A DNA stretch of 50,130 bases, taken from NCBI GenBank assembly GCA_902783115.1, contig CACZPW010000225.1, positions 1 to 50,130 on the forward strand, read 5' to 3'. Below the pieces are notes generated by a model that did not search any database, was not told the origin of the DNA, and saw only the letters and a program-made list of their open reading frames with translations. Position numbers and translations under genes: made by a program. The stretch is from an uncultured Ruminococcus sp. (GTDB taxonomy: Bacteria; Bacillota; Clostridia; UBA1381). Below are positions 3,201-46,104 of the stretch, in pieces. Positions within the stretch are counted from its first letter, which is position 1; each line of letters begins with the position of its first letter.

Positions 3201-3485
3201 ATTTTTATCTGCTGCCATAGCCTCGCAGTCCTGACTAAAGAAATTCACGGCGTCATTAAGATATTTCTTGTCGTGGGTGTAGAGGTAGTATCTTATTGCG
3301 GTATTGCATTTCCAACGGTGTGAGTTTTTTCCGGATAGCATATAATCATAGTTTTCGAGCAGATAGCTGATATAATCAGGCTTTTCCGTAATTGCAACGC
3401 TTTTCATGGGCTCTGCAAAAATCTGTGTGGGCAATACCGATAGGCAGATCGCCGTACTGATAATTAAAGCAATTAGTTTTTTCAT
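240..3485 (-). CDS. Secreted multidomain protein (1081 aa). Has an N-terminal ~720-aa putative polysaccharide-lyase-like region, a copper-amine-oxidase-N-like stalk repeat and a C-terminal CBM-like jelly-roll.
   Basis: Full-length ORF with signal peptide MKKLIALIISTAICLSVLPTQIFA. About 720 aa are colinear with the central region of the 12357-15965 protein (shared DxQEDAGDYNGVxMRDxIRW, APNGSMPEYGDDFYGR, SHxH..KGxVxYYEYDNxPL, IDNIRLEGPAGTxMIYDFEDG). The stalk motif is ILVPFRSVFEALGVEIDWDSQTQTV / TMVPIRFISESFGATVVWNNDSQLV. The C-terminus ends VWFDDITIKEVE, as CBM4_9/22-like modules do. The lyase assignment is weak and comes from memory of heparinase II/III-like H-x-H motifs. Confidence 0.85.
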   Translation of the reverse strand: MKKLIALIISTAICLSVLPTQIFAEPMKSVAITEKPDYISYLLENYDYMLSGKNSHRWKCNTAIRYYLYTHDKKYLNDAVNFFSQDCEAMAADKNVLSNNGGDFFSGNYLMQTYWELKKLGLVTPEQTRIINQYMDSFFRSSLMDSHNQIIARAVGVSYAIRALPESPKWQEWRDWLDKLWDYWYEDRDMQEDAGDYNGVMMRDIIRWAEIDGKPELLKDDGMKKMFSRFRDQLAPNGSMPEYGDDFYGRAMDWIYIFEYCANLYEDPTFAYAARHLYDWAIKNGLSDFFVDTEMFDIPDLYDEAYLNEEAATISTRNYKNQKDATAKILMRSSKLDGNPFIMVDNPKYRISHSHPAAKGSVVYYEYDNIPLYHSLTRRFVDPRYQNVPFFMDDAGYYPFDESPGNKQNPGRGRTGVWYHDELDLSALPPSDGSDASMRDVDSISLRLSRESNPEIWYYIDNIRLEGPAGTRMIYDFEDGGVGNFKRSDSPFENVAGGYESDHMMKITIDDSSVFYNATTNLKISMNEYTHIKWDWKTETPVGDTTTALWSIFRIWDNKCDESKVTNATLDGYGNCYIQIAPGELFNDNGYMTDEMVENSGKDTYTSFKLNDHIKKGSTVERRIVLTEEGYAIIQDTVTPSETADGFIGGPLFNIYNVKESGANWFLQKGEKKWYRNSSDSEGATNGMFVMYGQKDGAQIGHLKSVIGADTTYLKTTMVKNTPMNFITVLAPNLNDQKTGEEIAKSIVIQKDLVRDSLVSFKTDTGWVSVELPPDNSWKVTRNNKKLQGINVKLNGSYMSFNQPAVNVNDRILVPFRSVFEALGVEIDWDSQTQTVTGTRYDHTISVRPDDPTAYIDNKPVKLDVPAKNINGKTMVPIRFISESFGATVVWNNDSQLVEIFAQIPDYAKPVATETAQGVSLSNGDMESSSTAWSAQKTKCSFDKTVVRNGAVSMKLETDPGSGSNWRGFRHDDFEVEPGKTYRISAWIKTENLYEGSKVRISFGVKNGAGEWIVRDSDDSTKNLLQYNSSADDWTEITAVYTVPNEGSVISYFTPRLDTSSAGAEVLQSVWFDDITIKEVE

Positions 3486-7253: not shown

Positions 7254-7317
7254 TAAAAAAACTCCTTTCTGCCGCAACCGTGTGCGGACACAATATAATT
7301 CCCGATACTACAATTAT

Positions 7318-7496: not shown

Positions 7497-10400
7497 TTGA
7501 AAAAGACACGTATCAGTAAAATTCTTTGCCTGTCGTTATGTGCATCCATGGTATGTCCGTATATGACGGCAAGTGCGCAAACGCAGTACGGCACAGTAGA
7601 ACTTATAAACAACGGCGGCTTTGAAGCTGCGGATGCTGAGGATTTTCCGGCGGGATGGAGTTCCAACGGTAAAAATTTACTTTTGGGCGGAGATTTTGAA
7701 ACGGGAGATGCCGCGCTGACCTCTGTAGGTACAGCGGCTACGGGAGAAACCTTAAGATGGGCATCGCCCACTACAGGTACAAATGATATTTCCATAGTCC
7801 GAGCGTCGGAAGAAGAAAAGAGCGAACATGGAGATTACTATGCAAGAATGCGCTTTACAGCTCAGAACTGGGGCGGTCTGGGATATCCGAATCTCAGTAA
7901 GACCTCCAATTTGCTGAATGTAGCATACGGCGGTGAGTATCTGTTTAAAGCAGATTACAAGGTAAGCTCGACCGATGCGTTCAATGCTGCAACGATGAGC
8001 GCGTATTATATGGTGACAACGGCTCAAAGTGCAGAAAAAAATACAACGATGTTTGAACCGGTTTTTCCTAATAAAAGCAGTATGCCGTCTACACAGTGGC
8101 AGGAGTTTTCAACAAGCTTCACTGTTATAGACAGACCTGAAGGCGAAAATTTACAATATGACCCGCCGTGTGTATCAAGATTTCAATTCAGATATGGCGG
8201 CAAGCCTGTAATCGGTGCAGGCGAAAGTGCCGACTTGTTTGCAGATAATATCCGGCTTGAAAAGCTTGGGCGCACATCGTCAGAGTATAGCGCTTCGGGT
8301 AGCAGATCCCTTAAAATCGTCGGATACGCAGACACTGAGGACGAAATTTGGGAATCCGGGCAGGCAGAGGTTGAGCCGGGCGAGGAAATTGATGTTTCGG
8401 CAAAGGTATTGTCCGAAACTGTTGCAAAGTATACCGCTAACGGTGTCGAATACGAAGGTAAAATCAAAATATCTGCCGTATTTGACGATGGAAGCGAGGC
8501 AGAGATCGGAAGTATTACTCAATCCGGTAATGATTATGTAACGGTATCGGACGCCGTTACAGTTCCGCAATATGCGTCAAGGATGAATATAAGGATCACA
8601 TTTACGGGCGAGGGAATCGCATATATTGACGATGTGAGCGCAACGGCACAGCGCGAAATTGCCGATATAGCAGTGCCGGAGGACTATAAAAACATAATTG
8701 CAAACGGCGGCTTTGAAAACTATGACAGCCATGATTTCCCGGTAGGATTTTCTTCGGCAGGAAAAAATCTTATCGCAAACGGTGATTTTGAAACCAACAG
8801 TCTCGAATGCGGTAAGGATTTAAGCGGCACAAGAACGCTTACATGGGCAAAGGCGGGCTATGTTTCCGCTGTTACGCTTGAACAAAACTGCCAAAGCGAT
8901 TTGGCAGCTTACGGAAACTATGCCATGAAAATGCAGTGGGGTGACACAAAATGGGGCGGTGCCGTACTTCAGCATGACGCAAACGGCATTTTCCGTCTCT
9001 CTTACGGAAACAGCTATATTTTAAGAGCAAGTATAAAATCCGCTACTGAGAATGATTTTATCTCAAATGCACAAAGATTTCAGTTCAATGTAAATGTCGG
9101 CGGAACAGACAATATAGTTGATGAGAGCACATGGGTACCGTCTACACAGTGGCAGGAATATTCAGCCGTATTCTCGGCACCTCAGAATGCGGGTTTTGCC
9201 GGCAGGTTACAGCTAAGAGGCCGTACGGCTAATACTGCAGGGTCTGTTTTATATGCTGATAACATCAGTGTTGAGAAAACAAGCCGTACAGATTCTGCGG
9301 AGAAGAACACCGGAGATCGCTCTCTTCGGATTGACGGTTATGCCGATTCGGACGGTGCAGACGAGGTTTGGACATCCGAAACGGTCGGCATAAACGGCGG
9401 AGAGGATGTTTATTTCGGGCTGTCTTACAAGAAAGACAGCATAACCGCAGGCGCAGGCGCAAGACTTGTCTTTGTCGGTGCATCGGAAAGAATACTCGGT
9501 ACGGAAACGGTTGATTTGGGAACAGGCAGCAAATCAATATGGCAGCAGCGCATCGTAAAGGCTATAGCTCCCGAAGACGCGGAGTGTGTATATGTTGAAA
9601 TTTATCTAAAAGAGGGATCCGGTACTCTGTGGACGGATGATGTCTTTGTTTCGGTCAGAGCAGAGGAGGAGCATGAGAACGTCATTGTTCCCGACCAAAT
9701 CATTAACATTGTCGGAAACAGTGGATTTGAAGATGTTGACGGCAGACTGTTCCCGACAGGCTGGACTTCTGACGGGCAGAATCTGATCAAAAACGGAGAT
9801 TTTGAAGATGAGGCTTACTGGTACGCTGCCGGAGCATCGGCATCGGGAACCCGTGAATTTGCGTATTCAAGCGATAGCCCCGACGGTACAACGAGCGGTA
9901 ATCTGAAATGGACTGAGGCAACGGGAAATGAGGAATGGGGTTGCATGGCATACCGTGAAGGTCAGGGTACGCCTGCTGCCGCTTCGATACCGGTTGCCCT
10001 GGACAGTGATTACTATGTAGCTATGGACGCCAAACTTGGCGACAATATAAAGGGAAACAACATCAGGGTCATGGCTGAAATGAAAAACGGTGATAATCAG
10101 TGGGCGGCACAAACATTGCTTTCAAAGACTGCCGACGGTGAGTGGGCTAACTATACTTCAACGTACCATACACCGCTTGCATCGGCGGAGAAAAACGGCA
10201 ATAACCCCGATGTGTCAGGTGCATATATTTACTATGTGTATGCAGGACGCGCAACTGCTATCCCGATAGAAAGCGGAGAAACGCAGCTGTGGATAGACAA
10301 TCTGCGTTTGGAAAAGGTTGGCAGAGCTGACACTGCAGAATATGCAGCAGGTGAAAGGTCACTCAAGATTGTGGGCTATACCGACGGCGTAGATGAGGTA

Positions 10401-12329
10401 TGGGAATCGGACGATGTACTTGGAGTTACAGCGGGCGAGACGGTTTATTACGGCGGTAAGGTAAAGCTCCAGGGACTTAAAGACTATGCGCGGTTTGCAG
10501 TCAACTTCTATGACAAGAACGGCGTGTTTATATCATCCGATGGATTTAGCGCAGGCAGAGGTACAAAAGCGTGGGAAAGCTATACGGACGCTGTAACAGC
10601 TCCTCAAGGCGCAGATTATGCAAAGCTTGCCCTCATTGTAAATGACGGAAAAGGCACTGCGTGGTTTGACGATGTTGTTTTGGGCAAGCAGATAAGTGGG
10701 ATATATGCCAAGAAGGCAGTATTTGATCTTGATGAGCTTGCATCCAATGCAGGCAAAACCCTGACGGCTTCTACAAATGTATACAGTTATGAAGATGCGG
10801 CTGATGTGATGCTTGCTCTGGCTGTTTATAATCAGGGTATGCTTGTCGGTATAGATGTCAAATCGGCAAGAGCCGATGGCGAGGGAGTACCTGTGAGCGC
10901 ATCTGTAACCATTCCCGATATTGGCGAAACAGAGCTTGCAAGCTGTATCGCAAAAGCATTTATATGGGACAGCGATACTTATAAACCCATACACCCGGTC
11001 TGTGTTCTTGCGGGAAGCAAGACCATAGGAGGTATTACGATGTCACCGGCGTATGGGGATAATATGGTATTTCAGCAGGGTGAAGAAATTACGGTAAGCG
11101 GAACGGCTATGCCGGGTGAAACGGTTGATGTCAGTTTTGGAAACAGAAAGCAGACGGCATCTGCCGATGAGGACGGAAACTGGTCGGTTGACTTTAGTGC
11201 AATGGCTGCCGGAGGTCCTTATGCCCTTGTGGCAGAGGACGGCAGAGGACATAAAGAAGTGTTTACAAACATTATGATAGGTGAGGTATGGCTTGTAAGC
11301 GGACAGTCCAATATGCAGTATACTACCTCAGCCTTTAAAGAACTTGACCAATACACCGAAGACAATGAAATGTTAAGACTGTTCAGTGTTCCGCGTGTAC
11401 AGGAGGATGAGCCTGTTGACACGCTTGCGGCGGGCGAGTGGAAGAAGTGTACAAAGAGCGTTGCATCAAGCTTTTCGGCAGTCGGGTATCTGATCGGCAG
11501 GGAGCTCTCAAAGGCAATGCCCGATGTTGCGATCGGGATCGTGGAATCCTCCTATGCAGGCTCGGATATAGGTGAGTGGATGGATAATCAAACAGCCTAT
11601 CTTGCAAATGTCAACACCGCTGCGGAGAAACGCTCAAAACGCTTTAACGGTATGATATATCCGTTAAGAGAGTTTAAATATAAAGGCGTTGCGTGGTATC
11701 AGGGTGAATCAAGCCGTAACTGGCTGTATCAGATATGGTTGGAGGCAATGGTAAGCAACTGGAGAAGCACCTTCAATCAGCCAAAGCTTGATTTTGCGGT
11801 TGTCGGGCTTCCGAGGTTTAATCAGGATCAGTTTGTGATAGTAAGAGAGTGTCAGCGTCTTGCGGCAGAGGAAGACGATAACATTCATTTGTCGGTAAAT
11901 ATAGACCTTGGTGAAAAGGACAATGTTCATCCTTCGGATAAGCTGCCGCTTGTTCAAAGACTGTCAAATGTTATATTAAAAGAGGTTTACGGGAGAAATA
12001 TTGACTGCTACGGTCCGAAATTCAAGAGCGTTTCGTTTGAGGGAAATAAGGCTATAGTAACATTCGATAATGCACAGGGTATTACAACTACGGACGGAAA
12101 TGCACCCCGTGAATTTATTATTGCGGGCTCTGACGGTAATTTTGTTGTTGCGGATGCGGTAATAAATAACGGAAAGATTGAGCTTACGGCACCGGGCGTT
12201 TCAAAGCCGGTGTATGTCAGATATGCTTTTGAAGGTTATCCGGAGCCTAATTTGATAGGCGGTAACGGACTGCCTGCAGAGCCGTTCAGGACGGACTCCA
12301 TTAAAGATGTATATCCGTTTGAAGGATAA
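7497..12329 (+). CDS. Giant secreted protein with three tandem CBM-like A-B cassettes, an Ig-like module and a C-terminal SASA/SGNH-type carbohydrate O-acetylesterase domain
   Basis: The ORF is open from 7461. I prefer the TTG at 7497 because GGAGG (7485-7489) sits 7 nt upstream and it gives the signal peptide MKKTRISKILCLSLCASMVCPYMTASAQ. Three NGGFE..FPxGWxSxGxNL..NGDFE modules each end in DNIRLEK(L/V)GR and are followed by SLKIVGY...GTAWFDDV modules. The esterase region (about 11035-12329) has GEVWLVSGQSNMQ (Ser codon 11307-11309), WYQGESS and DNVHPSDK. Confidence 0.9.
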   Translation: MKKTRISKILCLSLCASMVCPYMTASAQTQYGTVELINNGGFEAADAEDFPAGWSSNGKNLLLGGDFETGDAALTSVGTAATGETLRWASPTTGTNDISIVRASEEEKSEHGDYYARMRFTAQNWGGLGYPNLSKTSNLLNVAYGGEYLFKADYKVSSTDAFNAATMSAYYMVTTAQSAEKNTTMFEPVFPNKSSMPSTQWQEFSTSFTVIDRPEGENLQYDPPCVSRFQFRYGGKPVIGAGESADLFADNIRLEKLGRTSSEYSASGSRSLKIVGYADTEDEIWESGQAEVEPGEEIDVSAKVLSETVAKYTANGVEYEGKIKISAVFDDGSEAEIGSITQSGNDYVTVSDAVTVPQYASRMNIRITFTGEGIAYIDDVSATAQREIADIAVPEDYKNIIANGGFENYDSHDFPVGFSSAGKNLIANGDFETNSLECGKDLSGTRTLTWAKAGYVSAVTLEQNCQSDLAAYGNYAMKMQWGDTKWGGAVLQHDANGIFRLSYGNSYILRASIKSATENDFISNAQRFQFNVNVGGTDNIVDESTWVPSTQWQEYSAVFSAPQNAGFAGRLQLRGRTANTAGSVLYADNISVEKTSRTDSAEKNTGDRSLRIDGYADSDGADEVWTSETVGINGGEDVYFGLSYKKDSITAGAGARLVFVGASERILGTETVDLGTGSKSIWQQRIVKAIAPEDAECVYVEIYLKEGSGTLWTDDVFVSVRAEEEHENVIVPDQIINIVGNSGFEDVDGRLFPTGWTSDGQNLIKNGDFEDEAYWYAAGASASGTREFAYSSDSPDGTTSGNLKWTEATGNEEWGCMAYREGQGTPAAASIPVALDSDYYVAMDAKLGDNIKGNNIRVMAEMKNGDNQWAAQTLLSKTADGEWANYTSTYHTPLASAEKNGNNPDVSGAYIYYVYAGRATAIPIESGETQLWIDNLRLEKVGRADTAEYAAGERSLKIVGYTDGVDEVWESDDVLGVTAGETVYYGGKVKLQGLKDYARFAVNFYDKNGVFISSDGFSAGRGTKAWESYTDAVTAPQGADYAKLALIVNDGKGTAWFDDVVLGKQISGIYAKKAVFDLDELASNAGKTLTASTNVYSYEDAADVMLALAVYNQGMLVGIDVKSARADGEGVPVSASVTIPDIGETELASCIAKAFIWDSDTYKPIHPVCVLAGSKTIGGITMSPAYGDNMVFQQGEEITVSGTAMPGETVDVSFGNRKQTASADEDGNWSVDFSAMAAGGPYALVAEDGRGHKEVFTNIMIGEVWLVSGQSNMQYTTSAFKELDQYTEDNEMLRLFSVPRVQEDEPVDTLAAGEWKKCTKSVASSFSAVGYLIGRELSKAMPDVAIGIVESSYAGSDIGEWMDNQTAYLANVNTAAEKRSKRFNGMIYPLREFKYKGVAWYQGESSRNWLYQIWLEAMVSNWRSTFNQPKLDFAVVGLPRFNQDQFVIVRECQRLAAEEDDNIHLSVNIDLGEKDNVHPSDKLPLVQRLSNVILKEVYGRNIDCYGPKFKSVSFEGNKAIVTFDNAQGITTTDGNAPREFIIAGSDGNFVVADAVINNGKIELTAPGVSKPVYVRYAFEGYPEPNLIGGNGLPAEPFRTDSIKDVYPFEG

Positions 12330-12356
12330 ATCAGTTAACAAAATGGGTGATTTACT

Positions 12357-15300
12357 ATGACTTTTATGAGGATTGCAACGGGCTTTCTCAGTGCAGCCAT
12401 AATAAGTGCGGCTGCGCCCTTGGAATACCCTTTGTATGCAAATGCGGCAGGCAATACTTATGAGAACATTCTTGAATACGGCGGCTTTGAACAGGCTGAT
12501 TCGTACGATTTTCCTATCGGATGGACATCAAACGGTAAGAATTTACTGCAAAACGGTGATCTTGAGAACGGATCCTTTGATGCGGGCGACAATTATTACG
12601 GCGACGCAAGGCTTAAGTGGTTATCGCTTGCAGGTGTGGGTATGTCGTTGGAAAACAGTGAAGATACGTACGGGCAATATCGTGCAAAGCTGATGTGGAA
12701 CGAAGCAAAATGGGGCGGAATAGGTATTCATAACAACAAAGGCATATACCCTCTTTCTTATGGCAGTGATTATATTTACAGAGGTATGTATAAGCTGTCG
12801 GATGAAAATGTATTTCCGCAAGATGCCCGCACACAGTTTAATACGATTTTTTACACATCCGATACGAATTATACAGAGCGTGTAGACTCTATTGATGTCA
12901 GACCGAATGCACAGTGGCAGGAAATAAGCCATTGCTATTCCATAAGAGAAAAGCTTGATACGGACGAATATCAATATCCGCGTATGACCAGATGGCAGTT
13001 CAGATTATCAAAGGGTGCCGAACAAACCGGTATATATGCAGACAATCTCAAAATGGAGAAGCTTGGCAGAACCGACACATCGGAAAAATACAGCGGCGAA
13101 AGAGCTTTAAAAATCGTTGCATATAATGACGGTGTTGATGAGGTGTGGACTTCCGGTCGGGTGGACGGCATTACAGGAGGAAGAACGGTAATTTTCGGTA
13201 CAAGAGCGAAGCTGTCGGGAATATCCGGAGAAGCTTCCTTAAGGCTTAACTATTATGATATGTACGGAAATTACATTTTATCGGATGAAAAGACGGTAGA
13301 AAGCCCGGATTCTGACTGGCATTCATACGAATTTGCCTCCATAGCGCCGGAAGATGCAAAAAAAGTTGATTTGGAGCTTGTATTGAAAGGTGCAACGGGT
13401 ACTGCGTGGTTTGATGACTGCCATGTTGACAGGAAGACAGACAGTGCATCTGCCCGTGAAGTTGAATCCAAGTATGCCATTTGGTATAAGAGCAATTACA
13501 GCAACCTTTTTAAAGGCGATGCGCATATAAGGGCTGCAGTTGCGGCAAGGTATTACCGCTATTTCGGCACTTCAAAATATCTTACCGATGCTTTAAACAG
13601 CTACAGGGAGATGATGACCGAATGGTCGCAAAGCAGCAGTGCGATTTCAAGTCTGGCAGATGATTTTTTCTCAGGCTCGTATATTATAGAAACATATATT
13701 ATGCTGAGAACCATGGGATACACTACGGACGATGAAAAAGACCTGATGCTTAACTATATAAATCAATTTTTCAGACCGAGCCTTAAAGGCTCGCACAATC
13801 AGGTTACTGCAAGAGCCGAGGCTATGGCGTATGCCGTAAAGGCGTTTCCTGATGAGCCTGCGGCGGCAAGCTGGCAGGCGTGGCTGGATATGTACTGGAA
13901 TATTTTAGATTCCGATAAAGATATTCAGGAGGATGCGGGCGACTATAACGGTGTTGCGATGCGGGATATGATCCGCTGGCTTAAAGTGTCGCACAATGAG
14001 GAGAGGCTGTTGGATGAGGGCTGGCGTCAGATGTTTTTGCGGTATCTTTATCAACAGGCACCCAACGGCTCAATGCCTGAATACGGCGATGATTTTTATG
14101 GCAGAACTTTAGACTGGATATATATTTTTGAATATCTTGCGGATCTGTATGACAGTCCCGAATTTGCCTACGGTGCGAGGAGGGCCTTTGACTGGGGTAC
14201 AAGAAACGCTCCCAGCGGTTATTGTACGAACAGTGAAACGCTTGAACTGCTGCCGAGGCTTTACGGCGGTGATGAGCAAAGACCCGAGCTTGCCTCCGAG
14301 ATCACAACAAGGCGGCTTGTAGGCGGTGAGGCAGCAAGAAACAAAATACTCTTGCGTAACAGCAAGGGCTATGTGTGGATAGACAATACATATAACTTAA
14401 GTCATGCACATAAAAATTCAAAGGGTGCCGTTACATACTATGAATACGATAATGTACCCCTGTTTCATTCGTTCCAGCGTCGGTTTGTTGACGCACGGTT
14501 TCAAAACCGTATGGCTATGCTTGAGCCGGACGAGGATTTTCCGTTTAATGGAGTTGTAAGTCATCAGACAAATCCCGGTCGTGCGGCTACAAATACATGG
14601 TATCATGACACGCTTCCCCTTACGGGGCTTCCCGAGTCGGATGCCCAAAACCCGAATTTGAGGGATTTGGATCAGATTTGTTTGCGCTTGTCCAAGGAAA
14701 AGAGCGACCATGTACTGTTAACGATCGATAATATAAGATTAGAAGGTCCGGCAGGGACATATATGATCTACGATTTCGAGGACGGCACTACGGGTGGTTT
14801 TAAGGGCAGAGCTTATACAAATGTTGAGGACGGATACGGAAGCAACAGAGCGATGACGGTGCGTGTGGATTCAAACGCACAGCTCTTCAACAAAGCAAAT
14901 CTTTGGCATAAGTTTGACATTACACAGTATAACTGTCTTAAATGGGATTGGAAAACGGCTACGGACGATAACGATGATATGACATGGTTGTGGTTTGTAA
15001 TGCGTGTCTGGGACAGGGACTGCGACGAATCCAAGGTAACGGAGGCATGGCTTGACGGATACGGGGACTGCTATGTGGAGATGAATCCGGGAGAGATAAG
15101 TACCTTTACAACGGACATTACAGATGCCTATGTAGAGGATAGAGGCGGCGATAGCTACGCAGAGCTTGAGCTGGGCGACTTTTTCGGAACGCAAAGCACC
15201 CAGAAGCGCAGAATAGTGCTTACGGATGAGGGCTATCTGGTCATTCAGGATACACTTTACCCGTCCTTGGCGGCTGACGGATACAGAGCAGGCGCAATAT

Positions 15301-15965
15301 GGGGCTTGTACAATGTCAGCGAACGCGGCAGTAATTGGTTTTTGCAGGCAGGCGAGAAAAAGTGGTATTCGGGCCTATCGGACAGCAAAGGCAAGGCAAA
15401 TGGATTGTTTGTTATGTTTTCCGATACAGATGACGCCCGCATCGACTCAATGTCAATTGTAAGCGGGGTATATACCCAGTCTGCGTCGAGAATAGTCCAA
15501 GGAGGAGTGCCTCAAAGCTTCATTACGGTTGTAGCACCGAATATTGATGATAAAAAGACGGGCGAAGAACTGGCAGACTCAATAAAGATCTTAAAGGACG
15601 GAGTATACCAAAGCGGTGTAAGCTATCAGACGGAACAAGGTTGGGTGCATGTTGAATTTCCGCCCGATGGCAACTTCAGCGTTACAAGAAACGCATCGGA
15701 TTTTGCCTATGTGCCGGAAATTTCAAAAACGGGAACCGAAATTTCGGTAAAGAGTGCGGTGTTCGGCTCTGCAACCCCGATGCTTGCTCTGTATGAGAAT
15801 AATATCCTTAAACGGATCGTAACAAATCCTCAAGCTCAGACATACGGCGATTACGCAATATATTCAATGTCGGCAGACTTGCCCGACGGCGATTACAGCG
15901 CAAAGGTGTTTGTATGGGATAAAAATATGCATCCGCTGACAAATGCGGTGCAAATGTCAAAATAG
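12357..15965 (+). CDS. Secreted protein (1202 aa) with one CBM-like A-B cassette, a lyase-like region paralogous to 240-3485 and a C-terminal Ig-like module
   Basis: Signal-like N-terminus MTFMRIATGFLSAAIISAAAPLEYPLYANA. It has YGGFEQADSYDFPIGWTSNGKNLLQNGDLE followed by DNLKMEKLGRT and a GTAWFDDCHV module. From about 13.45 kb onward it is colinear with the 240-3485 protein. Confidence 0.9.
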   Translation: MTFMRIATGFLSAAIISAAAPLEYPLYANAAGNTYENILEYGGFEQADSYDFPIGWTSNGKNLLQNGDLENGSFDAGDNYYGDARLKWLSLAGVGMSLENSEDTYGQYRAKLMWNEAKWGGIGIHNNKGIYPLSYGSDYIYRGMYKLSDENVFPQDARTQFNTIFYTSDTNYTERVDSIDVRPNAQWQEISHCYSIREKLDTDEYQYPRMTRWQFRLSKGAEQTGIYADNLKMEKLGRTDTSEKYSGERALKIVAYNDGVDEVWTSGRVDGITGGRTVIFGTRAKLSGISGEASLRLNYYDMYGNYILSDEKTVESPDSDWHSYEFASIAPEDAKKVDLELVLKGATGTAWFDDCHVDRKTDSASAREVESKYAIWYKSNYSNLFKGDAHIRAAVAARYYRYFGTSKYLTDALNSYREMMTEWSQSSSAISSLADDFFSGSYIIETYIMLRTMGYTTDDEKDLMLNYINQFFRPSLKGSHNQVTARAEAMAYAVKAFPDEPAAASWQAWLDMYWNILDSDKDIQEDAGDYNGVAMRDMIRWLKVSHNEERLLDEGWRQMFLRYLYQQAPNGSMPEYGDDFYGRTLDWIYIFEYLADLYDSPEFAYGARRAFDWGTRNAPSGYCTNSETLELLPRLYGGDEQRPELASEITTRRLVGGEAARNKILLRNSKGYVWIDNTYNLSHAHKNSKGAVTYYEYDNVPLFHSFQRRFVDARFQNRMAMLEPDEDFPFNGVVSHQTNPGRAATNTWYHDTLPLTGLPESDAQNPNLRDLDQICLRLSKEKSDHVLLTIDNIRLEGPAGTYMIYDFEDGTTGGFKGRAYTNVEDGYGSNRAMTVRVDSNAQLFNKANLWHKFDITQYNCLKWDWKTATDDNDDMTWLWFVMRVWDRDCDESKVTEAWLDGYGDCYVEMNPGEISTFTTDITDAYVEDRGGDSYAELELGDFFGTQSTQKRRIVLTDEGYLVIQDTLYPSLAADGYRAGAIWGLYNVSERGSNWFLQAGEKKWYSGLSDSKGKANGLFVMFSDTDDARIDSMSIVSGVYTQSASRIVQGGVPQSFITVVAPNIDDKKTGEELADSIKILKDGVYQSGVSYQTEQGWVHVEFPPDGNFSVTRNASDFAYVPEISKTGTEISVKSAVFGSATPMLALYENNILKRIVTNPQAQTYGDYAIYSMSADLPDGDYSAKVFVWDKNMHPLTNAVQMSK

Positions 15966-15988
15966 GAAGAGAGGTATCAGACATAGAA

Positions 15989-18900
15989 ATGTGTAAGAAG
16001 GTAAAATCTATATCCGTAGCGGTGGCTTTGCTGACATCTCTTTGGGTCACACCGATCAGTGCGCAGACAGAAGCTATACAGCTTTTGGCAAACGGCAGCT
16101 TTGAGTTTACAAGAGAATATGATTTCCCTGTAGGCTGGAGTTCAAACGGCGAGAATTTAATTCCAAACGGCGATTTTGAAAGCCGCTATTATTGGACATA
16201 CAACAACGGCTATCTTTCTTATGAGCATGATGATGAATTGGATTCTACAGTAGGAAAGCTTGCGTGGAACGCATTAAACAAATGGAATGCGATTACCATG
16301 CGTACCGATAAATTCGGTTTGTATTGGGATTACTCGCAAAATAAGAGATTTAACGAAGATACCAAGACACTGTTCGGCGGTGTGCCCGTAGCGTGGGGTG
16401 AAAGCTATATCCCAAGAATGAAAATGAAGTATACCGGCGATTTGGATACTGCCAGATACCTTGAAATGGAAATGAAGATAGGCTCTGCTCTTTCAACGGT
16501 CAGCGAGGGAAAGACCTACGACATTATAAATGTTGTTGCGAATACGCTGCCGAAGGATACTTGGAGTGAGCTTGGCGGTGAGAAATATACTTTTACGGTG
16601 CCGTCGGCAGAAAGCGTTGTGAGCAGTTATACAGATCAGACTCCGGGTATTATCAATCTTATCAATGTCGGAAGATCTCTGACAGTAAGCGATGCAAGTG
16701 CGGATTATACTAACGCATTTACATGGACGGACGATGCAAGATTTGAAAAATTGGGAAGAATAAGCTCCGATGCCGCAAGCGCAGGCTCAAAGTCCCTTAT
16801 GGTAAGAGGTTATGCAGACGGCATAACGGAGGAATGGAAGTCCGATCCCGTAAGCGTTATTGGCGGCGAGACGGTCGAGGTAAAATCAAAGGTAAGGGTT
16901 GATGAAATTTCTTCATATATAAGAAACGGCGTTACCGTTTCACCTGAGGCTGCGGTTTATGCTGACTTTGGAAACGGTACTGTTTCAAAGGTAGGAAGCA
17001 TATCCGATGTTACCGGCGGATTTGTGCAGATCGAAAGCGATGTTACCGTTCCGGACGGTGCGAACAGCCTGAGCCTTTTGTACACCTTTGACGGAAAAGG
17101 CACAGCATACTTTGACGATGCACAGATAAACGCACAGCGTGAGGTGCAGGATGTAGATCTTGGTGCATATTCCAACAGCATTATAAACGGCAGCTTTGAA
17201 CAGGCTGACAGCAATGGATTCCCCGTATCGTGGGATTCAAACGGAAAAAACCTTATTCCGAACGGCGATTTTGAAACAAACAGCATAGAGTTCGGATACA
17301 ATCTTACCAATACGGCAGTGCGTAGTTATACCAAAGCCGGCGGAGTAAGCGATGTAAGCGTTGTGGAAAACGAAAATGCACCGGCGGAGCTTGGCAACTA
17401 TTGCCTTAAGATGACTTGGAATAAGACAAACTGGGGCGGAGCAATGGTGCAGGATGATGCTGAGGGCGTTATTCCGCTTGCATATAGTTCGGATTATAGA
17501 CTGCGTGCCCGGGCAAAAGTGGATTCGGTAGCAAATTTTGGCACGAGTAAGTTTATATTTAATTTCATTCCAAGCTATAAATCAAGTGACGACTATGTAT
17601 CCACATCGGAGCTTACAACCGAGTGGCAGGAGTATACCGGAACATATACAACAGCCGCAAAGCCCGACGGTGCGGGTGATAGCTTCCCGTTTGCAAAAAG
17701 GTTCAGGCTTCGCAGTACTACCGTAGCCGACAGCGCAGTGATGTATGTAGATAATTTCAGCATGGAAAAGCTCGGCAGAACTGATACGGCAGAGAAAAAC
17801 AGCGGTAATAAGTCGCTAAAGATCGTTGCTTATGATGACGGTATAGACGAGGTATGGAAATCAGACAGAGTTTCGGTAAGAGAAAACCGTGAGATCGCTG
17901 TCGGTGCCTCATATAAGACCGAGTCACTCAGCGGCGGTGTAAGTATCATAGCAAACTTCTATCAAAACAATAACGCTGTGGGCAGTGCTGCGTTAATAAG
18001 CGGCGGAGAATCAAGTGCATGGAAAACTGCCGCAAAGGCGGTTACGGTACCCGAAGGCGCAAACAGTGCCGAGATCGTAATTACCGTTTCGGGAACGAGC
18101 GGTACGGCTTGGATAGACGATGTTCTTTTGGGCGAAAAGGCGGGGAATCCGTTTATTTCAGACATTGACTATTCCGTTGACGATCTTTATGCCAATAACG
18201 GCGAAACGGTAGAGGTCGATATAAATATTTCAAACTACAATGAAGCCTGCACGGCTTTTGTGGGAACTGCGCTTTATGACGGCGATAATAAGATGATCGC
18301 GCTGGATTGTGACAGCGAGGGTCTCAGTGCCAATGCAGCGTCTCAGACGGTGTCAAGATATATCACTTTGCCCGAGAACGGAGACCTTGCCGATTATAAG
18401 CTGAAAACATTTTTATGGCAGAGTGCCGATACGATGCTTCCGTATTGCAGTCCCGAAGTATTCCCCGATACAGTAAGCACATTTACCGTGAGTAAGCTGT
18501 TCCAGGATAATATGGTGCTCCAGCGTGATAAGGAAATAGCAATATACGGTCAGGGCTCGCCCGGCGAGCCTGTATGGGTAACGCTCGGAACCGACAGCGT
18601 TGTTACAAAGACGGACGCACAGGGGGACTGGATCGCATATCTTCCCCAAAGAGAGGCGTCGACAGAGGGAATAAGCCTTACTGTAAGAGGCAGAGGCGGC
18701 AGAGAATTTGATTTTGAAAATATCCTGATTGGCGATGTATTTATTATGTCCGGTCAGTCAAATGCCGCATTTTCCATCAGTGAGGTGATCAATTTCCGTC
18801 AAAACCCCGATCCGGCAAATGACAGTATCAGAGTTTTGGGAATGTATGAAGCAAGTAATAATGACGCTTTGGGCTCACAGGAGGAGCAGAAGGAGCTTCC

Positions 18901-20515
18901 AACGGCACAGGAGCTTAATCCGCTCGGCAAAAGCGGAGTTACAGACCCCACCTGGCTTGTGTTTGAGCCGGGTGCTACAGACAATGAGATAAGGAACGCT
19001 CCTCTGACAAGAGATACATCTGCGGTGCTCTACTACTTTGCAAGAGATTTGCAGCGTGAGCTTAGCTCCTCAACGGGTAAAACCGTGCCTATGGGACTTA
19101 TAACCGCGGCGGTAGGCGGAACGAGAATTGAAAAATGGCTGCCTGCAGAGGTATATGCTGAGCATCCTGAGCTTACAGCAGACCAGCAAGCACTCAGGAG
19201 CACGCTTTATAACAATATGATAAATCCGCTTACCAAGTTTAAGGTCAAAGGAATTTTGTGGTATCAGGGTTGTGCAAATGTCGCAAGCTCTGTCCGCTAC
19301 AAAAAGGAAATGCAATATTTGATAGAGACCTGGCGTACACGGTTTGGAGATCCCGACCTGCCGTTTATAATCCATCAGCTTGCGGGCTTTGGCGATTCGT
19401 ATGCACTTTTAAGGGACGCACAGAAGTCAGTTGCTCAAAGTATGGACAATGTTTATATGAATGTGCTTATCGACCTTGGCGAAAAAACCAATGTACACCC
19501 ACAGGCAAAGGAAACGGCGGGTGTAAGAGATACCGCTATTGCCTTAAGGGAATGGTACGGTATCGAAAATACGGACGGCGTATTTGCCGACTTTGACAGG
19601 TATGAAGCTACGGAGTATAACGGCAATAAGGCTATGAAGCTCTACTTTAAAAATGTAACAGGCGGATTTTACACTGTAAATTCATCCGGTGTCCGTACAC
19701 AAGGTCAGGAGCCCGGCGGTTTCTTGGTTGCGGATATGAGCGGCGAATTTAAGCGTGCCGAGGCTCACCTGAATGAGGATAACACGATCACTGTATGGAA
19801 TGAACAGATAACCGATCCTGTTTATATAAGATACGCTTTTGAGGGCTTCCCGTATCCTGAATTTGCAAATGTGTATACGGAAAACGGACTGCCGCTTACG
19901 CCATTCAGAAATGATACGATAAATGTTGAGTATTCTCTTGATAGGGCAAGCCTTGACAGCAGCAAGAATATGATACTTGACGCAGATTTTGAAACGTTGG
20001 CGGCTGACGGAAAGACATTTACGGGCTATTATACGCACAGAGTAACCAATACAAGCTACGGCGGCGTAACGGCGGCACAGTGGGATACATATACGGAGCA
20101 GTACGGCAGCTACTATGCGGATATGTCGCTCTTTAACGGAACAGGCAATGCAAATACCGCAGTTTATACCGCAATCACGGGCGCAAGGGAAAATCAGCGC
20201 ATAGCTGTAAATGAGGGCACATACATCATCGAGGCGGATGTCGATGCCGACTTTACCGATCCAAGCACACAGCTTTATATGCAGTGGGGACTGTATACAA
20301 ACGATGAAACGCCTGTCGGGAGCTTCTACACAAATAACGGCGACTGGCTTGTAACAGAATCGACCGGCGGCATGGTGCATATACAGGGTACGGTGCATTT
20401 TGACAGCAAATACAATAACGGCTATCTTTACGCTTTCGGACCAAGACTTGTAACAAAATCCACCGAGGTACAGAAAGTTAAGATAGACAACCTTGTTTTA
20501 AGAAAAGCAAATTAA
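15989..20515 (+). CDS. Giant secreted protein (1508 aa) with two CBM-like A-B cassettes, an Ig-like module, a SASA/SGNH-type O-acetylesterase domain and a C-terminal CBM-like module
   Basis: Signal peptide MCKKVKSISVAVALLTSLWVTPISAQ. Esterase motifs are GDVFIMSGQSNAAF (Ser codon 18758-18760), WYQGCANV and TNVHPQAKE. The C-terminal ~190 aa start NMILDADFE and end KIDNLVLRKAN. Confidence 0.9.
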   Translation: MCKKVKSISVAVALLTSLWVTPISAQTEAIQLLANGSFEFTREYDFPVGWSSNGENLIPNGDFESRYYWTYNNGYLSYEHDDELDSTVGKLAWNALNKWNAITMRTDKFGLYWDYSQNKRFNEDTKTLFGGVPVAWGESYIPRMKMKYTGDLDTARYLEMEMKIGSALSTVSEGKTYDIINVVANTLPKDTWSELGGEKYTFTVPSAESVVSSYTDQTPGIINLINVGRSLTVSDASADYTNAFTWTDDARFEKLGRISSDAASAGSKSLMVRGYADGITEEWKSDPVSVIGGETVEVKSKVRVDEISSYIRNGVTVSPEAAVYADFGNGTVSKVGSISDVTGGFVQIESDVTVPDGANSLSLLYTFDGKGTAYFDDAQINAQREVQDVDLGAYSNSIINGSFEQADSNGFPVSWDSNGKNLIPNGDFETNSIEFGYNLTNTAVRSYTKAGGVSDVSVVENENAPAELGNYCLKMTWNKTNWGGAMVQDDAEGVIPLAYSSDYRLRARAKVDSVANFGTSKFIFNFIPSYKSSDDYVSTSELTTEWQEYTGTYTTAAKPDGAGDSFPFAKRFRLRSTTVADSAVMYVDNFSMEKLGRTDTAEKNSGNKSLKIVAYDDGIDEVWKSDRVSVRENREIAVGASYKTESLSGGVSIIANFYQNNNAVGSAALISGGESSAWKTAAKAVTVPEGANSAEIVITVSGTSGTAWIDDVLLGEKAGNPFISDIDYSVDDLYANNGETVEVDINISNYNEACTAFVGTALYDGDNKMIALDCDSEGLSANAASQTVSRYITLPENGDLADYKLKTFLWQSADTMLPYCSPEVFPDTVSTFTVSKLFQDNMVLQRDKEIAIYGQGSPGEPVWVTLGTDSVVTKTDAQGDWIAYLPQREASTEGISLTVRGRGGREFDFENILIGDVFIMSGQSNAAFSISEVINFRQNPDPANDSIRVLGMYEASNNDALGSQEEQKELPTAQELNPLGKSGVTDPTWLVFEPGATDNEIRNAPLTRDTSAVLYYFARDLQRELSSSTGKTVPMGLITAAVGGTRIEKWLPAEVYAEHPELTADQQALRSTLYNNMINPLTKFKVKGILWYQGCANVASSVRYKKEMQYLIETWRTRFGDPDLPFIIHQLAGFGDSYALLRDAQKSVAQSMDNVYMNVLIDLGEKTNVHPQAKETAGVRDTAIALREWYGIENTDGVFADFDRYEATEYNGNKAMKLYFKNVTGGFYTVNSSGVRTQGQEPGGFLVADMSGEFKRAEAHLNEDNTITVWNEQITDPVYIRYAFEGFPYPEFANVYTENGLPLTPFRNDTINVEYSLDRASLDSSKNMILDADFETLAADGKTFTGYYTHRVTNTSYGGVTAAQWDTYTEQYGSYYADMSLFNGTGNANTAVYTAITGARENQRIAVNEGTYIIEADVDADFTDPSTQLYMQWGLYTNDETPVGSFYTNNGDWLVTESTGGMVHIQGTVHFDSKYNNGYLYAFGPRLVTKSTEVQKVKIDNLVLRKAN
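16082..16272 (+). repeat. Segmental duplication, copy A1 (partner 20802-20992)
   Basis: Colinear at a constant offset of 4720 nt with the start of the 20697 gene, with only scattered substitutions by eye. The encoded peptide is LLANGSFEFTREYDFPVGWSSNGENLIPNGDFESR... in both copies. Confidence 0.8.
16727..17125 (+). repeat. Segmental duplication, copy A2 (partner 21474-21872)
   Basis: About 400 nt are colinear at an offset of 4747 nt. The peptide WTDDARFEKLGR...SLMV(R/K)GYADG...VYADFGNGTVSKVGS...LLYTFDGKGTAYFDDAQ is near-identical in both proteins. Confidence 0.8.
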
Positions 20516-20601
20516 AACGGTAAATTCAAGATAATAAATATTTACAGTAAATGCGGATTTTAACGCAGTTACCTTAAAATTGTGTCAGAGTGTTAAATTA
20601 T

Positions 20602-20635
20602 TTGTATTGTAGAGGTAAAAACTTTTTGCTAAAAT
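20602..20635 (+). promoter_or_regulatory. Candidate internal promoter P2, with the same architecture as P1
   Basis: TTGTATTG (20602-20609) with -35 TTGTAG (20607-20612), a 17-nt spacer, then TGcTAAAAT (TAAAAT at 20630-20635). The octamer-to-(-10) spacing is identical to P1. Confidence 0.5.
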
Positions 20636-20696
20636 TAAACTATGGGTAATATATACTTGAAAAAACATAAATCATGAAAAGGAGTTGTTTTAGAAA

Positions 20697-23123
20697 ATGA
20701 GTATCAGAAAAAGAGCGGCGGTTGTTTTGGCTCTTGCGCTTAGTATGATCGCTGCGGTGCTTCCCGCACCCATAGCATCGGCAAGCGTGAGCCCGACCAA
20801 TCTTTTGGCAAACGGCAGCTTTGAGCTTACAAGAGAATATGATTTCCCTGTAGGCTGGAGCTCAAACGGCGAGAACTTGATCCCAAACGGCGATTTTGAG
20901 AGCCGTGCGTATTGGAGATATAACAACGGCAACCTGTCCTATGAATACGATGAAGAGTTGGGTTCTACGGTAGGAAAGCTCGAGTGGAACGGGGGAGCAA
21001 AAGGTTGGAATGCAGTTACCATGAGATCCGATGGAGGTAATAATGTAGGTATATATTGGGATTATGCGCAGAATAAGCGAATCACAGTATCATCGCCGAC
21101 ATTCACCGCAATACCGATTGCGTGGGAAGGACAATATATACCGCGCATGAAGATGAAGTATACAGGTGATGATTGTAATACCAACAAAAATCTTTTGATG
21201 CAAATAACAGTTTCCTCGGCAGCTGTGGCTACGATCCAATCGACTCCAGAGGGAAAAACGCTGGATATTATTATTGCAGTTCCGGCAAAAGATGTTATTA
21301 AAGATGAATGGGCGAACCTTAGCAATACTTGTACGATCGGTTCGGCTTCAGCGATTGTGAGCACTTATACCAATGACACCCCGGGTGTTGTCAGATTGAT
21401 AAATGTTTGCAGAGCAGAAACTATCAATAAAGGAACAAAAGATGACCCAAATTATGGGACGATGACCGCATGGACGGACGATGCAAGATTTGAGAAATTA
21501 GGAAGAACAAGCACCTCGGCGGCGAGCGCAGGCTCAAAATCACTTATGGTAAAGGGCTATGCAGACGGCGTAAGAGAGGAATGGAAATCCGACCCCGTAA
21601 ATGTTATAGGCGGTGAAACACTTGAGGTAAAATCAAAGGTAAGAGTTGATGAGATTGATTCATATACAAGAAGCGGCGTTACCGTTTCACCCGAGGTTGC
21701 GGTTTATGCGGACTTTGGAAACGGTACCGTTTCAAAGGTAGGAAGCGTATCCGCTGTTACCGACGGATTTGTGCAGATCTCGGGCAATGTTACCGTTCCT
21801 TCAACTGCAAGCGGTGTAAGCCTTTTATATACCTTTGACGGCAAGGGTACTGCATATTTTGACGATGCACAGGTTATTTCTTCAAACAGGATCTCAAACG
21901 GCGGCTTTGAGCTGACAGACAGCAAAGACTTCCCCGTATCGTGGGATTCAAACGGAAAAAATATGGTTACTAACGGAGATTTTGAAGCTACAGAGTATTG
22001 GTATGGCAATGGCTATGGTGCATTTAGTTATATAGATAACGGAGGCAAAGACGGTTCAAGATGCGGCAAGCTGGTTTGGAATGCGGCAAACTGGGGAAGC
22101 ATAGCAGAGCGTGTCGGCTATAAAGGCAAAGATAGCAATGAAGCGATGCCCAAAAGTAAAATGCCGGTATTAGCGTTTGGAAGTAAATACAAGGTAAGCA
22201 TGGATACTAAGTGTAGTGCCGGTAACATTAGTAACAGTAATGTAGTGATTATCACTGAATGTCCGTATACGTCTGGCAACTACAAACCGAATATAATCAG
22301 TAAAACGGCAAGCGAAACATGGACAACATATACGAATGAATTTACGCCTGTCAAACCAAACGACTGTGATCAAAATTATCTTACAGTAAATCTGTTGCAC
22401 ACAGCAAGGGCAACAGCTAACGCTGCCGGTGCGGAGGTTTGGATTGATAATGTACGCATTGAAAAGCTCGGAAGAGCAGACACGGCAGATAAGAACAGCG
22501 GCGACAAATCGCTAAAGATCGTTGCTTATGACGACGGTATTGATGAGGAATGGTCATCCGGCAAGGTGGCGGTTGAGGAAGGCGAGAGACTTGATGTTTC
22601 CGCAGCGTATAAGACGGCATCTCTTAGCGGTGGACTTGATATAAAGGCGAAGTTCTATGACGGAAGCACCTATTTAAGCGAACAGTCAATAGCAAGTGCC
22701 GCAACTTCAGCGACATGGACAACTGCAGAGGCGACCGTAACCGTTCCCGAAAATGCGGACGGTATGGAGCTGGTATTTATTGTTCCGGGTGCGAGCGGCA
22801 CGGCTTGGATAGACGATGTATCTGTTACAGAGTCAGCACCTGTTGAGCCTGCGGAGGAATATATCCCCGTAACAGACGGTAATATCTACACATCGGGTGA
22901 TGTGGACGGCGAGCAGGGCTTTGTTGCAGAGTATACGACCGAGGAAACAAGCGGAACAAAGGAAGTCGAGTGGAAAATAATAGACTTCTCGGATATGAAG
23001 TTTACCACAAGAAGCCAGTTTATAAATTTAGACAAAGCAAGCGAGGGTGCTGTCAAATTCGGTCTTATCCTCAGTGATATGATCCCGGGACACAGCTACA
23101 GCGCAATGTATTTTCTTAAATGA
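20697..23123 (+). CDS. Secreted protein (808 aa) made of two CBM-like A-B cassettes with no catalytic domain. It is a paralogue of the N-terminal half of the 15989 protein.
   Basis: GGAG RBS at 20681-20684. Signal peptide MSIRKRAAVVLALALSMIAAVLPAPIASA. It repeats the NGSFE/NGGFE..FPV(G/S)W(S/D)SNG.N...NGDFE signature. I found no SLH, LPXTG or dockerin motif. Confidence 0.9.
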   Translation: MSIRKRAAVVLALALSMIAAVLPAPIASASVSPTNLLANGSFELTREYDFPVGWSSNGENLIPNGDFESRAYWRYNNGNLSYEYDEELGSTVGKLEWNGGAKGWNAVTMRSDGGNNVGIYWDYAQNKRITVSSPTFTAIPIAWEGQYIPRMKMKYTGDDCNTNKNLLMQITVSSAAVATIQSTPEGKTLDIIIAVPAKDVIKDEWANLSNTCTIGSASAIVSTYTNDTPGVVRLINVCRAETINKGTKDDPNYGTMTAWTDDARFEKLGRTSTSAASAGSKSLMVKGYADGVREEWKSDPVNVIGGETLEVKSKVRVDEIDSYTRSGVTVSPEVAVYADFGNGTVSKVGSVSAVTDGFVQISGNVTVPSTASGVSLLYTFDGKGTAYFDDAQVISSNRISNGGFELTDSKDFPVSWDSNGKNMVTNGDFEATEYWYGNGYGAFSYIDNGGKDGSRCGKLVWNAANWGSIAERVGYKGKDSNEAMPKSKMPVLAFGSKYKVSMDTKCSAGNISNSNVVIITECPYTSGNYKPNIISKTASETWTTYTNEFTPVKPNDCDQNYLTVNLLHTARATANAAGAEVWIDNVRIEKLGRADTADKNSGDKSLKIVAYDDGIDEEWSSGKVAVEEGERLDVSAAYKTASLSGGLDIKAKFYDGSTYLSEQSIASAATSATWTTAEATVTVPENADGMELVFIVPGASGTAWIDDVSVTESAPVEPAEEYIPVTDGNIYTSGDVDGEQGFVAEYTTEETSGTKEVEWKIIDFSDMKFTTRSQFINLDKASEGAVKFGLILSDMIPGHSYSAMYFLK
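20802..20992 (+). repeat. Segmental duplication, copy B1 (partner 16082-16272)
   Basis: See the partner entry. Confidence 0.8.
21474..21872 (+). repeat. Segmental duplication, copy B2 (partner 16727-17125)
   Basis: See the partner entry. Confidence 0.8.
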
Positions 23124-40682: not shown

Positions 40683-40691
40683 GTGTTTTTT

Positions 40692-41393: not shown

Positions 41394-41405
41394 GAGGTGC
41401 TGATT

Positions 41406-46054: not shown

Positions 46055-46104
46055 TTTAAACAAATGCAAGTATCATATTGAATAAAAACGGAGTTATTAA
46101 AGAT

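Follow-up and report, generated by a model that had tools for sequence, protein, structure and literature searches.

Probable nesting of one carbohydrate-binding-module-like jelly roll within another in the repeated cassettes of a polysaccharide-utilisation locus from uncultured gut Clostridia

A 50,130-nucleotide stretch of DNA from an uncultured Ruminococcus sp. (GenBank assembly GCA_902783115.1, contig CACZPW010000225.1, positions 1 to 50,130; hereafter the window) encodes five giant secreted proteins in which a cassette resembling carbohydrate-binding modules (CBMs) is repeated. An earlier note on this DNA had read each cassette as a module A of ~220 amino acids (aa) followed by a module B of ~130 aa, and had recognised no described architecture in their strict pairing or in the doubled NGxFE motif with which A opens. 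The locus raises the question of why two modules should always travel together and why one of them should appear to start twice. Our answer, which we consider highly probable, is that each cassette is one CBM-like beta-sandwich (the outer or host domain) with a second, complete one (the inner or guest domain) inserted in an early loop. On this reading the division into A and B does not hold: B begins with strands that had been counted as the first 27 aa of A, and what is left of A is the insert. One domain-in-domain insertion then accounts for the strict pairing as well as for the doubled opening, with no need for independent modules that pair. What the analyses below establish is that the cassettes are repeats, that they have jelly-roll folds and that the outer domain is encoded discontinuously. 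That the cassettes also serve as two-lobed glycan-targeting units of a polysaccharide-utilisation locus is part of the explanation that we favor as a whole, with good confidence though less than for the topology.

The cassettes were located in the stretch of the + strand from 7.5 to 33.7 kb by motif scans (regular expressions) and MAFFT alignment. Ten were found, each of ~320-360 aa, spread over five signal-peptide proteins. The earlier count of about ten thus stood, as did the distribution of three, one, two and two among the proteins starting at 7497, 12357, 15989 and 20697; for the protein starting at 29613, where one to two had been proposed, there are two, the second divergent. The NGxFE starts lie at nucleotides (nt) 7611, 8703, ~9717, 12477, 16091, 17186, 20811, 21897 and 29712, every one of them no more than 8 nt from the figure first noted. 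Judged from sequence, the similarity among the cassettes is far above chance: BLASTP was significant for all 45 pairs (E from 3.6e-163 to 9e-4 at worst), and identity to the reference cassette in the alignment is 21-42%. Each cassette consists of an outer N-segment of 27 aa (NGGFE-x6-FPxGWSSxGxN), an inner domain of 163-209 aa (NGDFE ... DNxRxEKLG), which is a complete CBM_4_9-like jelly roll, and the outer remainder, B, of ~122 aa (RTDT..GxRSLKIVGY ... GTAWFDDV). The insertion site is the turn after the strand that bears the conserved Trp of the outer domain. The partitions given here rest on the alignment and on matches of two hidden Markov models (HMMs), the spliced outer profile and the inner profile.

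7596-8654, + strand: p7461 cassette 1, aa 46-398; N-segment 7596-7676, inner domain 7677-8270, B 8271-8654 (spliced profile matches aa 47-122 and aa 268-397; inner profile aa 73-270, E 1.4e-63)
8688-9662, + strand: p7461 cassette 2, aa 410-734; N-segment 8688-8768, inner domain 8769-9284, B 9285-9662 (Pfam CBM_4_9 match of the inner domain at aa 435-579, model positions 1-123, 26.0 bits)
9702-10694, + strand: p7461 cassette 3, aa 748-1078; N-segment 9702-9782, inner domain 9783-10322, B 10323-10694 (B matches the spliced profile with E 1.4e-47, positions 25-149)
12462-13439, + strand: p12357 single cassette, aa 36-361; N-segment 12462-12542, inner domain 12543-13067, B 13068-13439 (the CBM_4_9 match of B alone begins only at model position 33)
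16076-17140, + strand: p15989 cassette 1, aa 30-384; N-segment 16076-16156, inner domain 16157-16756, B 16757-17140
17171-18142, + strand: p15989 cassette 2, the one that was modelled, aa 395-718; N-segment 17171-17251, inner domain 17252-17776, B 17777-18142
20796-21887, + strand: p20697 cassette 1, aa 34-397; N-segment 20796-20876, inner domain 20877-21503, B 21504-21887 (nearest paralogue p15989 cassette 1, with B 80%, N-segment 89% and inner domain 56% identical in global pairwise alignment)
21882-22838, + strand: p20697 cassette 2, aa 396-714; N-segment 21882-21962, inner domain 21963-22472, B 22473-22838
29697-30707, + strand: p29550 cassette 1, aa 50-386; N-segment 29697-29780, inner domain 29781-30374, shortened B 30375-30707
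31551-32486, + strand: p29550 cassette 2, divergent and without the textbook signature, aa 668-979; N-segment 31551-31625, inner domain 31626-32114, B 32115-32486 (Pfam CBM_4_9 match of the inner domain at aa 692-829, E 1.3e-13, 51.9 bits)

Both NGGFE..FPxGW..G and the second NGDFE resemble the first strands of a CBM4_9 domain, and B opens with a G.RSLK motif, the usual successor of those strands; it was this opening of B, together with the two NGxFE starts, that led to the hypothesis that the N-segment belongs to B and that the rest of A is inserted. Pfam searches with the separate parts bear this out. The inner domain is N-terminally complete alone: its match to CBM_4_9 starts with its own NGDFE, at model position 1-4 (the isolated inner domain of p15989 cassette 2 scores 36.9 bits from position 4), and B alone matches from position 33. 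A first trial with single spliced sequences gave a mixed outcome, one improving and one losing its match, and the test was repeated on all ten members, with the addition of profiles against PDB sequences. The best CBM_4_9 E-value among the ten improved from 1.1e-3 to 8.7e-7 once the N-segment was joined directly to B. The spliced N-segment plus B profile is collinear with the solved CBM70 4d0q (2-148 to 3-155) and with CBM22-1 4xuo (4-144 to 11-151, E 0.008); against CBM22 the profile of B only begins at residue 34, with E 0.33. Read as a sequential tandem, the cassette has a second domain that starts ~32 positions late and becomes complete only with the 27 aa that lie upstream of the first. 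There is exactly one N-segment per cassette, always upstream of the inner domain, also in the single-cassette p12357, and none after the last B.

Relatives with an uninterrupted host were sought by an exhaustive HMMER profile search of 1.84 billion representatives, which returned 4,126 proteins at E <= 1e-3; the 150 best of these were examined in detail. In most of the 150 only the B part is matched, and in such relatives the N-segment motif abuts B directly, with nothing between, as in P0014: NSGFENGDIGSVPESWKASGSANSAFVSSEEHYSGSNSMKL. P0014, P0027 and P0036 are all contiguous in this way, NGGFE..W..SG running straight into ..SG.SLK. When an end-to-end match was defined as one from position 8 or lower to position 140 or higher of the spliced HMM, 250 uninterrupted domains were found in 102 of the 150 representatives. 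Matches split in two, with the parts 149-199 aa apart, numbered 17 cassettes in 11 proteins, all of them cassette-family relatives. The ratio of 250 contiguous to 17 split matches indicates that the host domain is normally contiguous and that the cassette family acquired the guest. Full nested cassettes, 42 in all, are carried by 26 of the 150, SLH-anchored proteins of 2,000-2,700 aa among them, and the junction is identical in 52 of 52 cassettes when the ten of the window are included. The host is uninterrupted in relatives and broken at one fixed loop, which is the pattern of a domain insertion.

The contiguous form also occurs within the window. The lone B-like module that had been described at the end of the protein encoded at 240-3485 is real, and its profile matches identify it as an un-inserted instance of the domain; positions 19-148 of the spliced outer profile match aa 931-1079 (E 4e-6).

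249-725, - strand: uninterrupted C-terminal CBM_4_9 domain of p240, aa 921-1045; Pfam CBM_4_9 E 8.2e-11

Structure prediction likewise returned jelly rolls of the carbohydrate-binding type and not another fold. The AlphaFold2 model of the full p15989 cassette 2 has a predicted local distance difference test score (pLDDT) of 89.6 and a predicted template-modelling (TM) score (pTM) of 0.83, the latter high for two lobes and suggesting that the modelled lobes have a defined mutual orientation. When its N-segment was spliced to B, a full jelly roll was predicted (pLDDT 89.9, pTM 0.86): the guest is complete alone by its Pfam match, and in the prediction the host folds after removal of the guest. 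The beta assignments of the N-segment, at residues 2, 12, 18 and 21-23, are identical in the full and spliced models, the strands of B coincide between the two, and the splice point falls in the non-strand stretch 24-28. Since the N-segment has the same strands without the inner domain, its pairing partners would not be in the inner domain. In Foldseek superpositions the predicted spliced outer domain matches CBM16 2zey (TMq 0.79, TMt 0.81, root-mean-square deviation (rmsd) 2.8 Å, 155 columns), CBM4-2 (0.77) and CBM70 (0.75), and CBM22 is matched as well; TM thus exceeds 0.5 over the full domain, as for a jelly roll of the CBM4/16/22 type. The likeness to CBM4_9 and CBM22 jelly rolls suspected earlier is therefore upheld by Pfam and by structure. 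The full cassette matches single-CBM targets with TMt 0.73-0.76, and among the PDB and BFVD top matches ranked by E-value none covers both lobes (best TMq 0.36 and 0.41, respectively).

Membership of a known family is less clear-cut than the fold. Against the Pfam CBM_4_9 (PF02018) gathering score of 25.9 bits, the inner domain reaches the cut-off in three cassettes (p7461 cassette 2, 26.0 bits; p15989 cassette 2, 27.5 bits, or 36.9 isolated; p29550 cassette 2, 51.9 bits) and falls under it in p20697 cassette 2 (23.7 bits); five of the ten isolated inner domains match at E <= 1. On these scores the inner domain is a borderline member of CBM_4_9. None of the outer domains reaches the cut-off as encoded, that is split: B alone gives at best 19.3 bits among the matches listed, starting at model position 33. 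After splicing, five of the ten outer domains match (best E 8.7e-7), and the spliced reference cassette scores 15.1 bits while spanning model positions 1-131. No significant similarity to the founding members of CBM4, CBM16, CBM22 and CBM70 was found, the profile E-values against PDB sequences being 1e-5 to 1e-2, mostly over partial lengths and at 12-22% identity. The outer domain shares the fold class but does not demonstrably belong to any CAZy family. Standard annotation shows at most one weak CBM_4_9 match per ~330-aa unit, and the split host is missed.

The proteins that carry the cassettes are the following.

7497-12329, + strand (open reading frame (ORF) from 7461): p7461, with signal peptide, three cassettes, a ~100-aa module, an Ig-like domain and a SASA-type esterase domain
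12357-15965, + strand: p12357, with signal peptide, one cassette and then a ~750-aa domain without known family, common to p240
15989-20515, + strand: p15989, with signal peptide, two cassettes, a ~100-aa module, a SASA-type esterase domain and a lone C-terminal CBM-like domain
20697-23123, + strand: p20697, with signal peptide, two cassettes and a 94-aa tail, in which protein a catalytic domain was looked for and none detected
29613-33746, + strand (ORF from 29550): p29550, with signal peptide, a cassette, Ig-like domains, a second cassette, further Ig-like domains and three SLH repeats

The starts proposed earlier at 7497 (TTG) and 29613 (ATG) are each preceded by a GGGAGG(G) ribosome-binding site, and are on this ground probably the true starts of p7461 and p29550. 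The locus also encodes an AraC/dCache regulator, an ABC importer with its binding protein, a GH88 enzyme and a second SLH protein, and further two glycyl-radical enzyme/activase pairs, a sugar kinase, a cupin isomerase and a ROK regulator; by its gene content this is a Gram-positive polysaccharide-utilisation locus. Within this setting the cassettes are likely to be rigid two-lobed units for glycan targeting, and the following mode of action is proposed. The chain would leave the outer domain, build the inner domain and return to complete the outer one; with two crossovers between the lobes their orientation would be fixed, giving a rigid, lectin-like unit. One to three such units stand at the N-termini of two putative SASA-type acetylesterases, of the protein with the ~750-aa domain, of a non-catalytic secreted protein and of the SLH protein. 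They may concentrate the enzymes on one complex polysaccharide, probably acidic (containing uronic acid) and acetylated, which p29550 could hold at the cell surface through its SLH repeats. The rigidity of the unit, its binding of carbohydrate and the ligand itself are all putative. Four of the cassette proteins were said to lack SLH, LPXTG and dockerin motifs, and this is so: among the window proteins SLH domains occur only in p29550 and p33830, a C-terminal LPXTG motif is absent, and no dockerin was listed in the general Pfam scan, the sole check made. How these four are retained at the cell had seemed a puzzle; as free secreted enzymes or binding proteins they would need no retention.

Several points weigh against this reading. 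The AlphaFold2 alignments comprised just 10 sequences, and it is from identical DSSP patterns that the N-segment is deduced to touch B in the full model. The CBM_4_9 sequence matches of the outer domain are mostly under the curated cut-off. Within the window the identity of the N-segment correlates with that of B (r 0.60) and of A (r 0.46), and it follows B in the four clear cases in which A and B point to different nearest neighbours; over all 52 cassettes, however, it tracks the inner domain and B equally (partial r 0.28 and 0.27), and the co-evolution comparison carries no weight in the reading that we favor. Glycan binding by the cassettes is putative, and this type of jelly roll is also put to uses other than as a lectin, phage fibres, Cry/Vip3 toxins and reelin being among the Foldseek matches.

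The last point is the starting point of the strongest alternative, namely that the cassettes are nested but do not bind glycans, and act instead as structural spacers or protein-protein modules, for example in docking the secreted enzymes to the SLH proteins or the cell envelope. Besides the wider use of the fold, it would account for the lack of an anchor in four of the five cassette proteins and for the near-invariant aromatic and charged positions, which are common to all 52 cassettes and do not vary. We consider it improbable, since the closest structures to the outer lobe are ligand-bound CBM16, CBM4-2, CBM61 and CBM70 and a porphyran-binding CBM, carbohydrate esterases of a sugar-utilisation locus bear the cassettes, and the SLH protein itself has two cassettes, which fits substrate capture better than enzyme docking. 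A second alternative keeps two independent modules in series, an A of ~220 aa with extra N-terminal strands and an N-terminally truncated B of ~130 aa that always travel together. The order in the sequence is indeed N-segment, A, B, the tie in the 52-cassette correlation suits it equally well, and the best Foldseek match of the whole cassette (E 1e-13) is a sequential tandem, CBM22-1-CBM22-2 (PDB 4xup). That superposition is poor over the whole unit, however (TMq 0.34, rmsd 16-21 Å), and against independent modules stand the completeness of A in Pfam terms without the N-segment, the lack of the first ~32 model positions in B, the 250 relatives with N-segment and B fused, and the persistence in the models of the beta pairings of the N-segment after deletion of A; we regard this alternative as very unlikely. 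The idea that each N-segment completes the B of the preceding cassette by strand exchange, an artefact of repeat phase to which the spacing of only ~10-20 aa between a B and the next N-segment in multi-cassette proteins lends some color, was rejected and deserves next to no credence, being contradicted by the single-cassette proteins (p12357, P0009, P0012 and P0013), in which one N-segment stands upstream of A and none after B, by the absence of an N-segment after the last B of any protein and by the position of the first N-segment directly after the signal peptide.

The nested, glycan-targeting cassette can be set against several known systems. Insertion of CBMs into other domains has been described for the Xyn10C-type xylanases of Bacteroidota (e.g., Pm25), in which two CBM4 are inserted in the GH10 barrel, and for SusG with its CBM58 (PMC7848910). 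As in the cassettes, the guest is a CBM (in Xyn10C a CBM4-type jelly roll) in a loop of the host, the host is discontinuous, and the arrangement is evolutionarily stable; the host in those cases, however, is a TIM-barrel or GH13 catalytic domain, whereas in the cassettes host and guest belong to the same superfamily, the host being itself a CBM-like jelly roll, and the unit is here repeated up to three times per protein. In the "evolved Dit" baseplate proteins of siphophages CBMs occur as insertions in the Dit arm (PMC8540738), which likewise places a CBM in a loop or arm of another domain and adds glycan binding. The comparison differs in that the host is a phage structural domain, not of the CBM_4_9 type, without sequence relationship to the cassettes, and belongs to a phage tail and not to a bacterial secreted enzyme. 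The galectin-like host domain of Dit is itself a beta-sandwich. Tandems of CBMs in sequence are common. One, CBM22-1-CBM22-2 of Paenibacillus barcinonensis Xyn10C (4xup), resembles the cassette in having two jelly rolls of the same fold at the N-terminus of a secreted Firmicute enzyme; its domains are sequential, and its identity to the cassette is 13-14%. The structures that best match the reconstituted outer domain, CBM16 (2zey/2zew/3oea), CBM4-2 (1k42, 2y6j) and CBM70 (4d0q), superpose on it with TMq 0.73-0.79 and rmsd 2.8-5 Å, essentially the whole target being covered, but they are uninterrupted domains and only 12-19% identical to it, a distance at which their ligands (beta-glucans/mannans, xylan and hyaluronan) cannot be transferred. 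Pfam CBM_4_9 shares the NGxFE start and D-rich end with the inner domain, yet the model detects the guest only and not the split host. When the open literature was searched by phrase for one CBM nested within or inserted into another, nothing but papers on phage Dit came up. An arrangement in which a CBM-like jelly roll houses a second one, here found ten times within a single locus, thus appears to be undescribed, in line with the earlier failure to recognise the architecture and with the low identity to solved CBMs (12-22%) and the low whole-cassette TM scores; the fold and general role of the cassettes appear ordinary, and what appears new is the domain-in-domain build.

Guest and host do not always agree in their relationships. 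Cassette 1 of p7461 and cassette 1 of p29550 are 53% identical in the inner domain and 26% in B over match columns (52 and 23% by global alignment), while for p15989 cassette 2 and p20697 cassette 2 the figures are 56% for B, 74% for the N-segment and 26% for the inner domain (55, 74 and 28%). These discordant sequence similarities suggest either exchange of guest domains or very unequal rates. In a more speculative extension, which we put forward tentatively and hold to be rather doubtful, the nested unit would be a modular lectin platform in which a rigid host CBM carries exchangeable guest CBMs with partly decoupled histories, so allowing combinatorial specificities, and the locus, with its ~750-aa enzyme domain, would define new CBM and enzyme families for an acidic, acetylated polysaccharide used by uncultured gut Clostridia.

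The ~750-aa domain just mentioned is common to p240 (240-3485, - strand; aa ~38-783) and p12357 (aa ~373-1112), at 46% identity, and has no Pfam, NCBIfam or PDB-sequence match; given the GH88 in the locus, it may represent a new family of polysaccharide lyases or hydrolases. In p240 the ~750-aa domain is followed by a domain of the copper amine oxidase N-terminal type (aa 794-900; Pfam Cu_amine_oxidN1, E 1.4e-33) and then by the terminal CBM; the oxidase-type domain and this contiguous CBM stand in for the N-terminal nested cassette of the paralogue p12357. A module of ~100 aa (...VFDLDEL...FIWDS..KP...) recurs after the last cassette in both esterases and at the end of p12357, with BLASTP E of 1e-9 and about 1e-3.

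10722-11060 (approximate), + strand: ~100-aa module of p7461, aa ~1088-1200
18170-18508 (approximate), + strand: ~100-aa module of p15989, aa ~728-840
15747-15941 (approximate), + strand: ~100-aa module of p12357, aa ~1131-1195

The lone CBM-like domain after the esterase of p15989 (aa ~1328-1508, nt ~19970-20512; DADFE ... IDNLVLRK) matches the inner-domain profile weakly (E 0.005), and the same domain is found in relatives P0003, P0008 and P0012. Divergently transcribed from the cassette genes is a gene (3507-7277, - strand) whose 1,256-aa product shows no obvious signal peptide; the sole match of this protein is a weak N-terminal DUF4861 (E 0.0023), and it has no PDB-sequence relative. Directly downstream of p29550 lies the gene of p33830 (33830-36484, + strand), an 884-aa protein with N-terminal SLH and no other recognisable domain. 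Beyond it the GH88 gene is flanked by the two glycyl-radical enzyme/activase pairs; glycyl-radical enzymes are unusual inside a polysaccharide locus. At 46001-50130 the G+C content drops from about 0.44 to 0.35-0.37, a possible sign that the locus ends here or that this part has another origin. Neither the Rfam scan nor the tRNA scan of the window gave a match.

36526-37293, + strand: radical-SAM activase
37277-39487, + strand: glycyl-radical enzyme, PFL-like
39553-40578, + strand: GH88
40683-41393, + strand: radical-SAM activase
41397-43733, + strand: glycyl-radical enzyme, PFL-like
46078-47193: ROK regulator
47831-48985: Fic/DOC-family protein with a C-terminal winged helix-turn-helix

The distribution of the cassettes was addressed in protein and genome collections. 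A search of 5.8 billion clustered proteins found no more than five relatives of p12357, and each of them comes from an ENA or Logan metagenome assembly. The gene order of the window recurs in a second organism, on a metagenomic contig (L003/L004, ENA metagenome contigs, 11,665 bp): a three-cassette SASA protein (1,656 aa), a protein with two cassettes and the ~750-aa domain (1,542 aa), and a further cassette protein cut by the contig end. A word-index protein search with one cassette gave no match, which is read as a limit of the sensitivity of the tool and not as absence because the exhaustive HMMER search later found thousands. In the species representatives of GTDB a pattern scan derived from the cassette alignment gave 27 matches, none of which was confirmed, and the family seems to be absent from them, at least by this single pattern. 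An exact-sequence look-up of p12357 gave no record, so that the collection consulted does not contain the window itself. The second glycyl-radical enzyme has 205 relatives, up to 85% identical, in metagenome-assembled genomes of gut Clostridia (with the labels Clostridia, Oscillospiraceae, Acutalibacteraceae and Congzhengia); no cassettes were present in 80 genomic loci around them, up to +/-10 kb, and the cassette genes are thus not conserved neighbours of that enzyme. On these results the window probably derives from an uncultured member of the gut Clostridia, and the cassette locus is rare.

If the nested reading is true, the cassettes would be a natural case of two jelly rolls of the sugar-binding type locked together by a double connection, and a template for rigid bivalent binders as opposed to flexible tandems. 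Profile libraries miss the host domain because it is split by 163-209 aa, and recognising discontinuous CBMs would account for large unannotated stretches in the very large surface proteins of Firmicutes. The locus that these units mark is rare; it joins acetylesterases, a GH88, an enzyme domain without known family and glycyl-radical enzymes, and it is a defined target for finding the polysaccharide that is consumed by these uncultured gut Clostridia.

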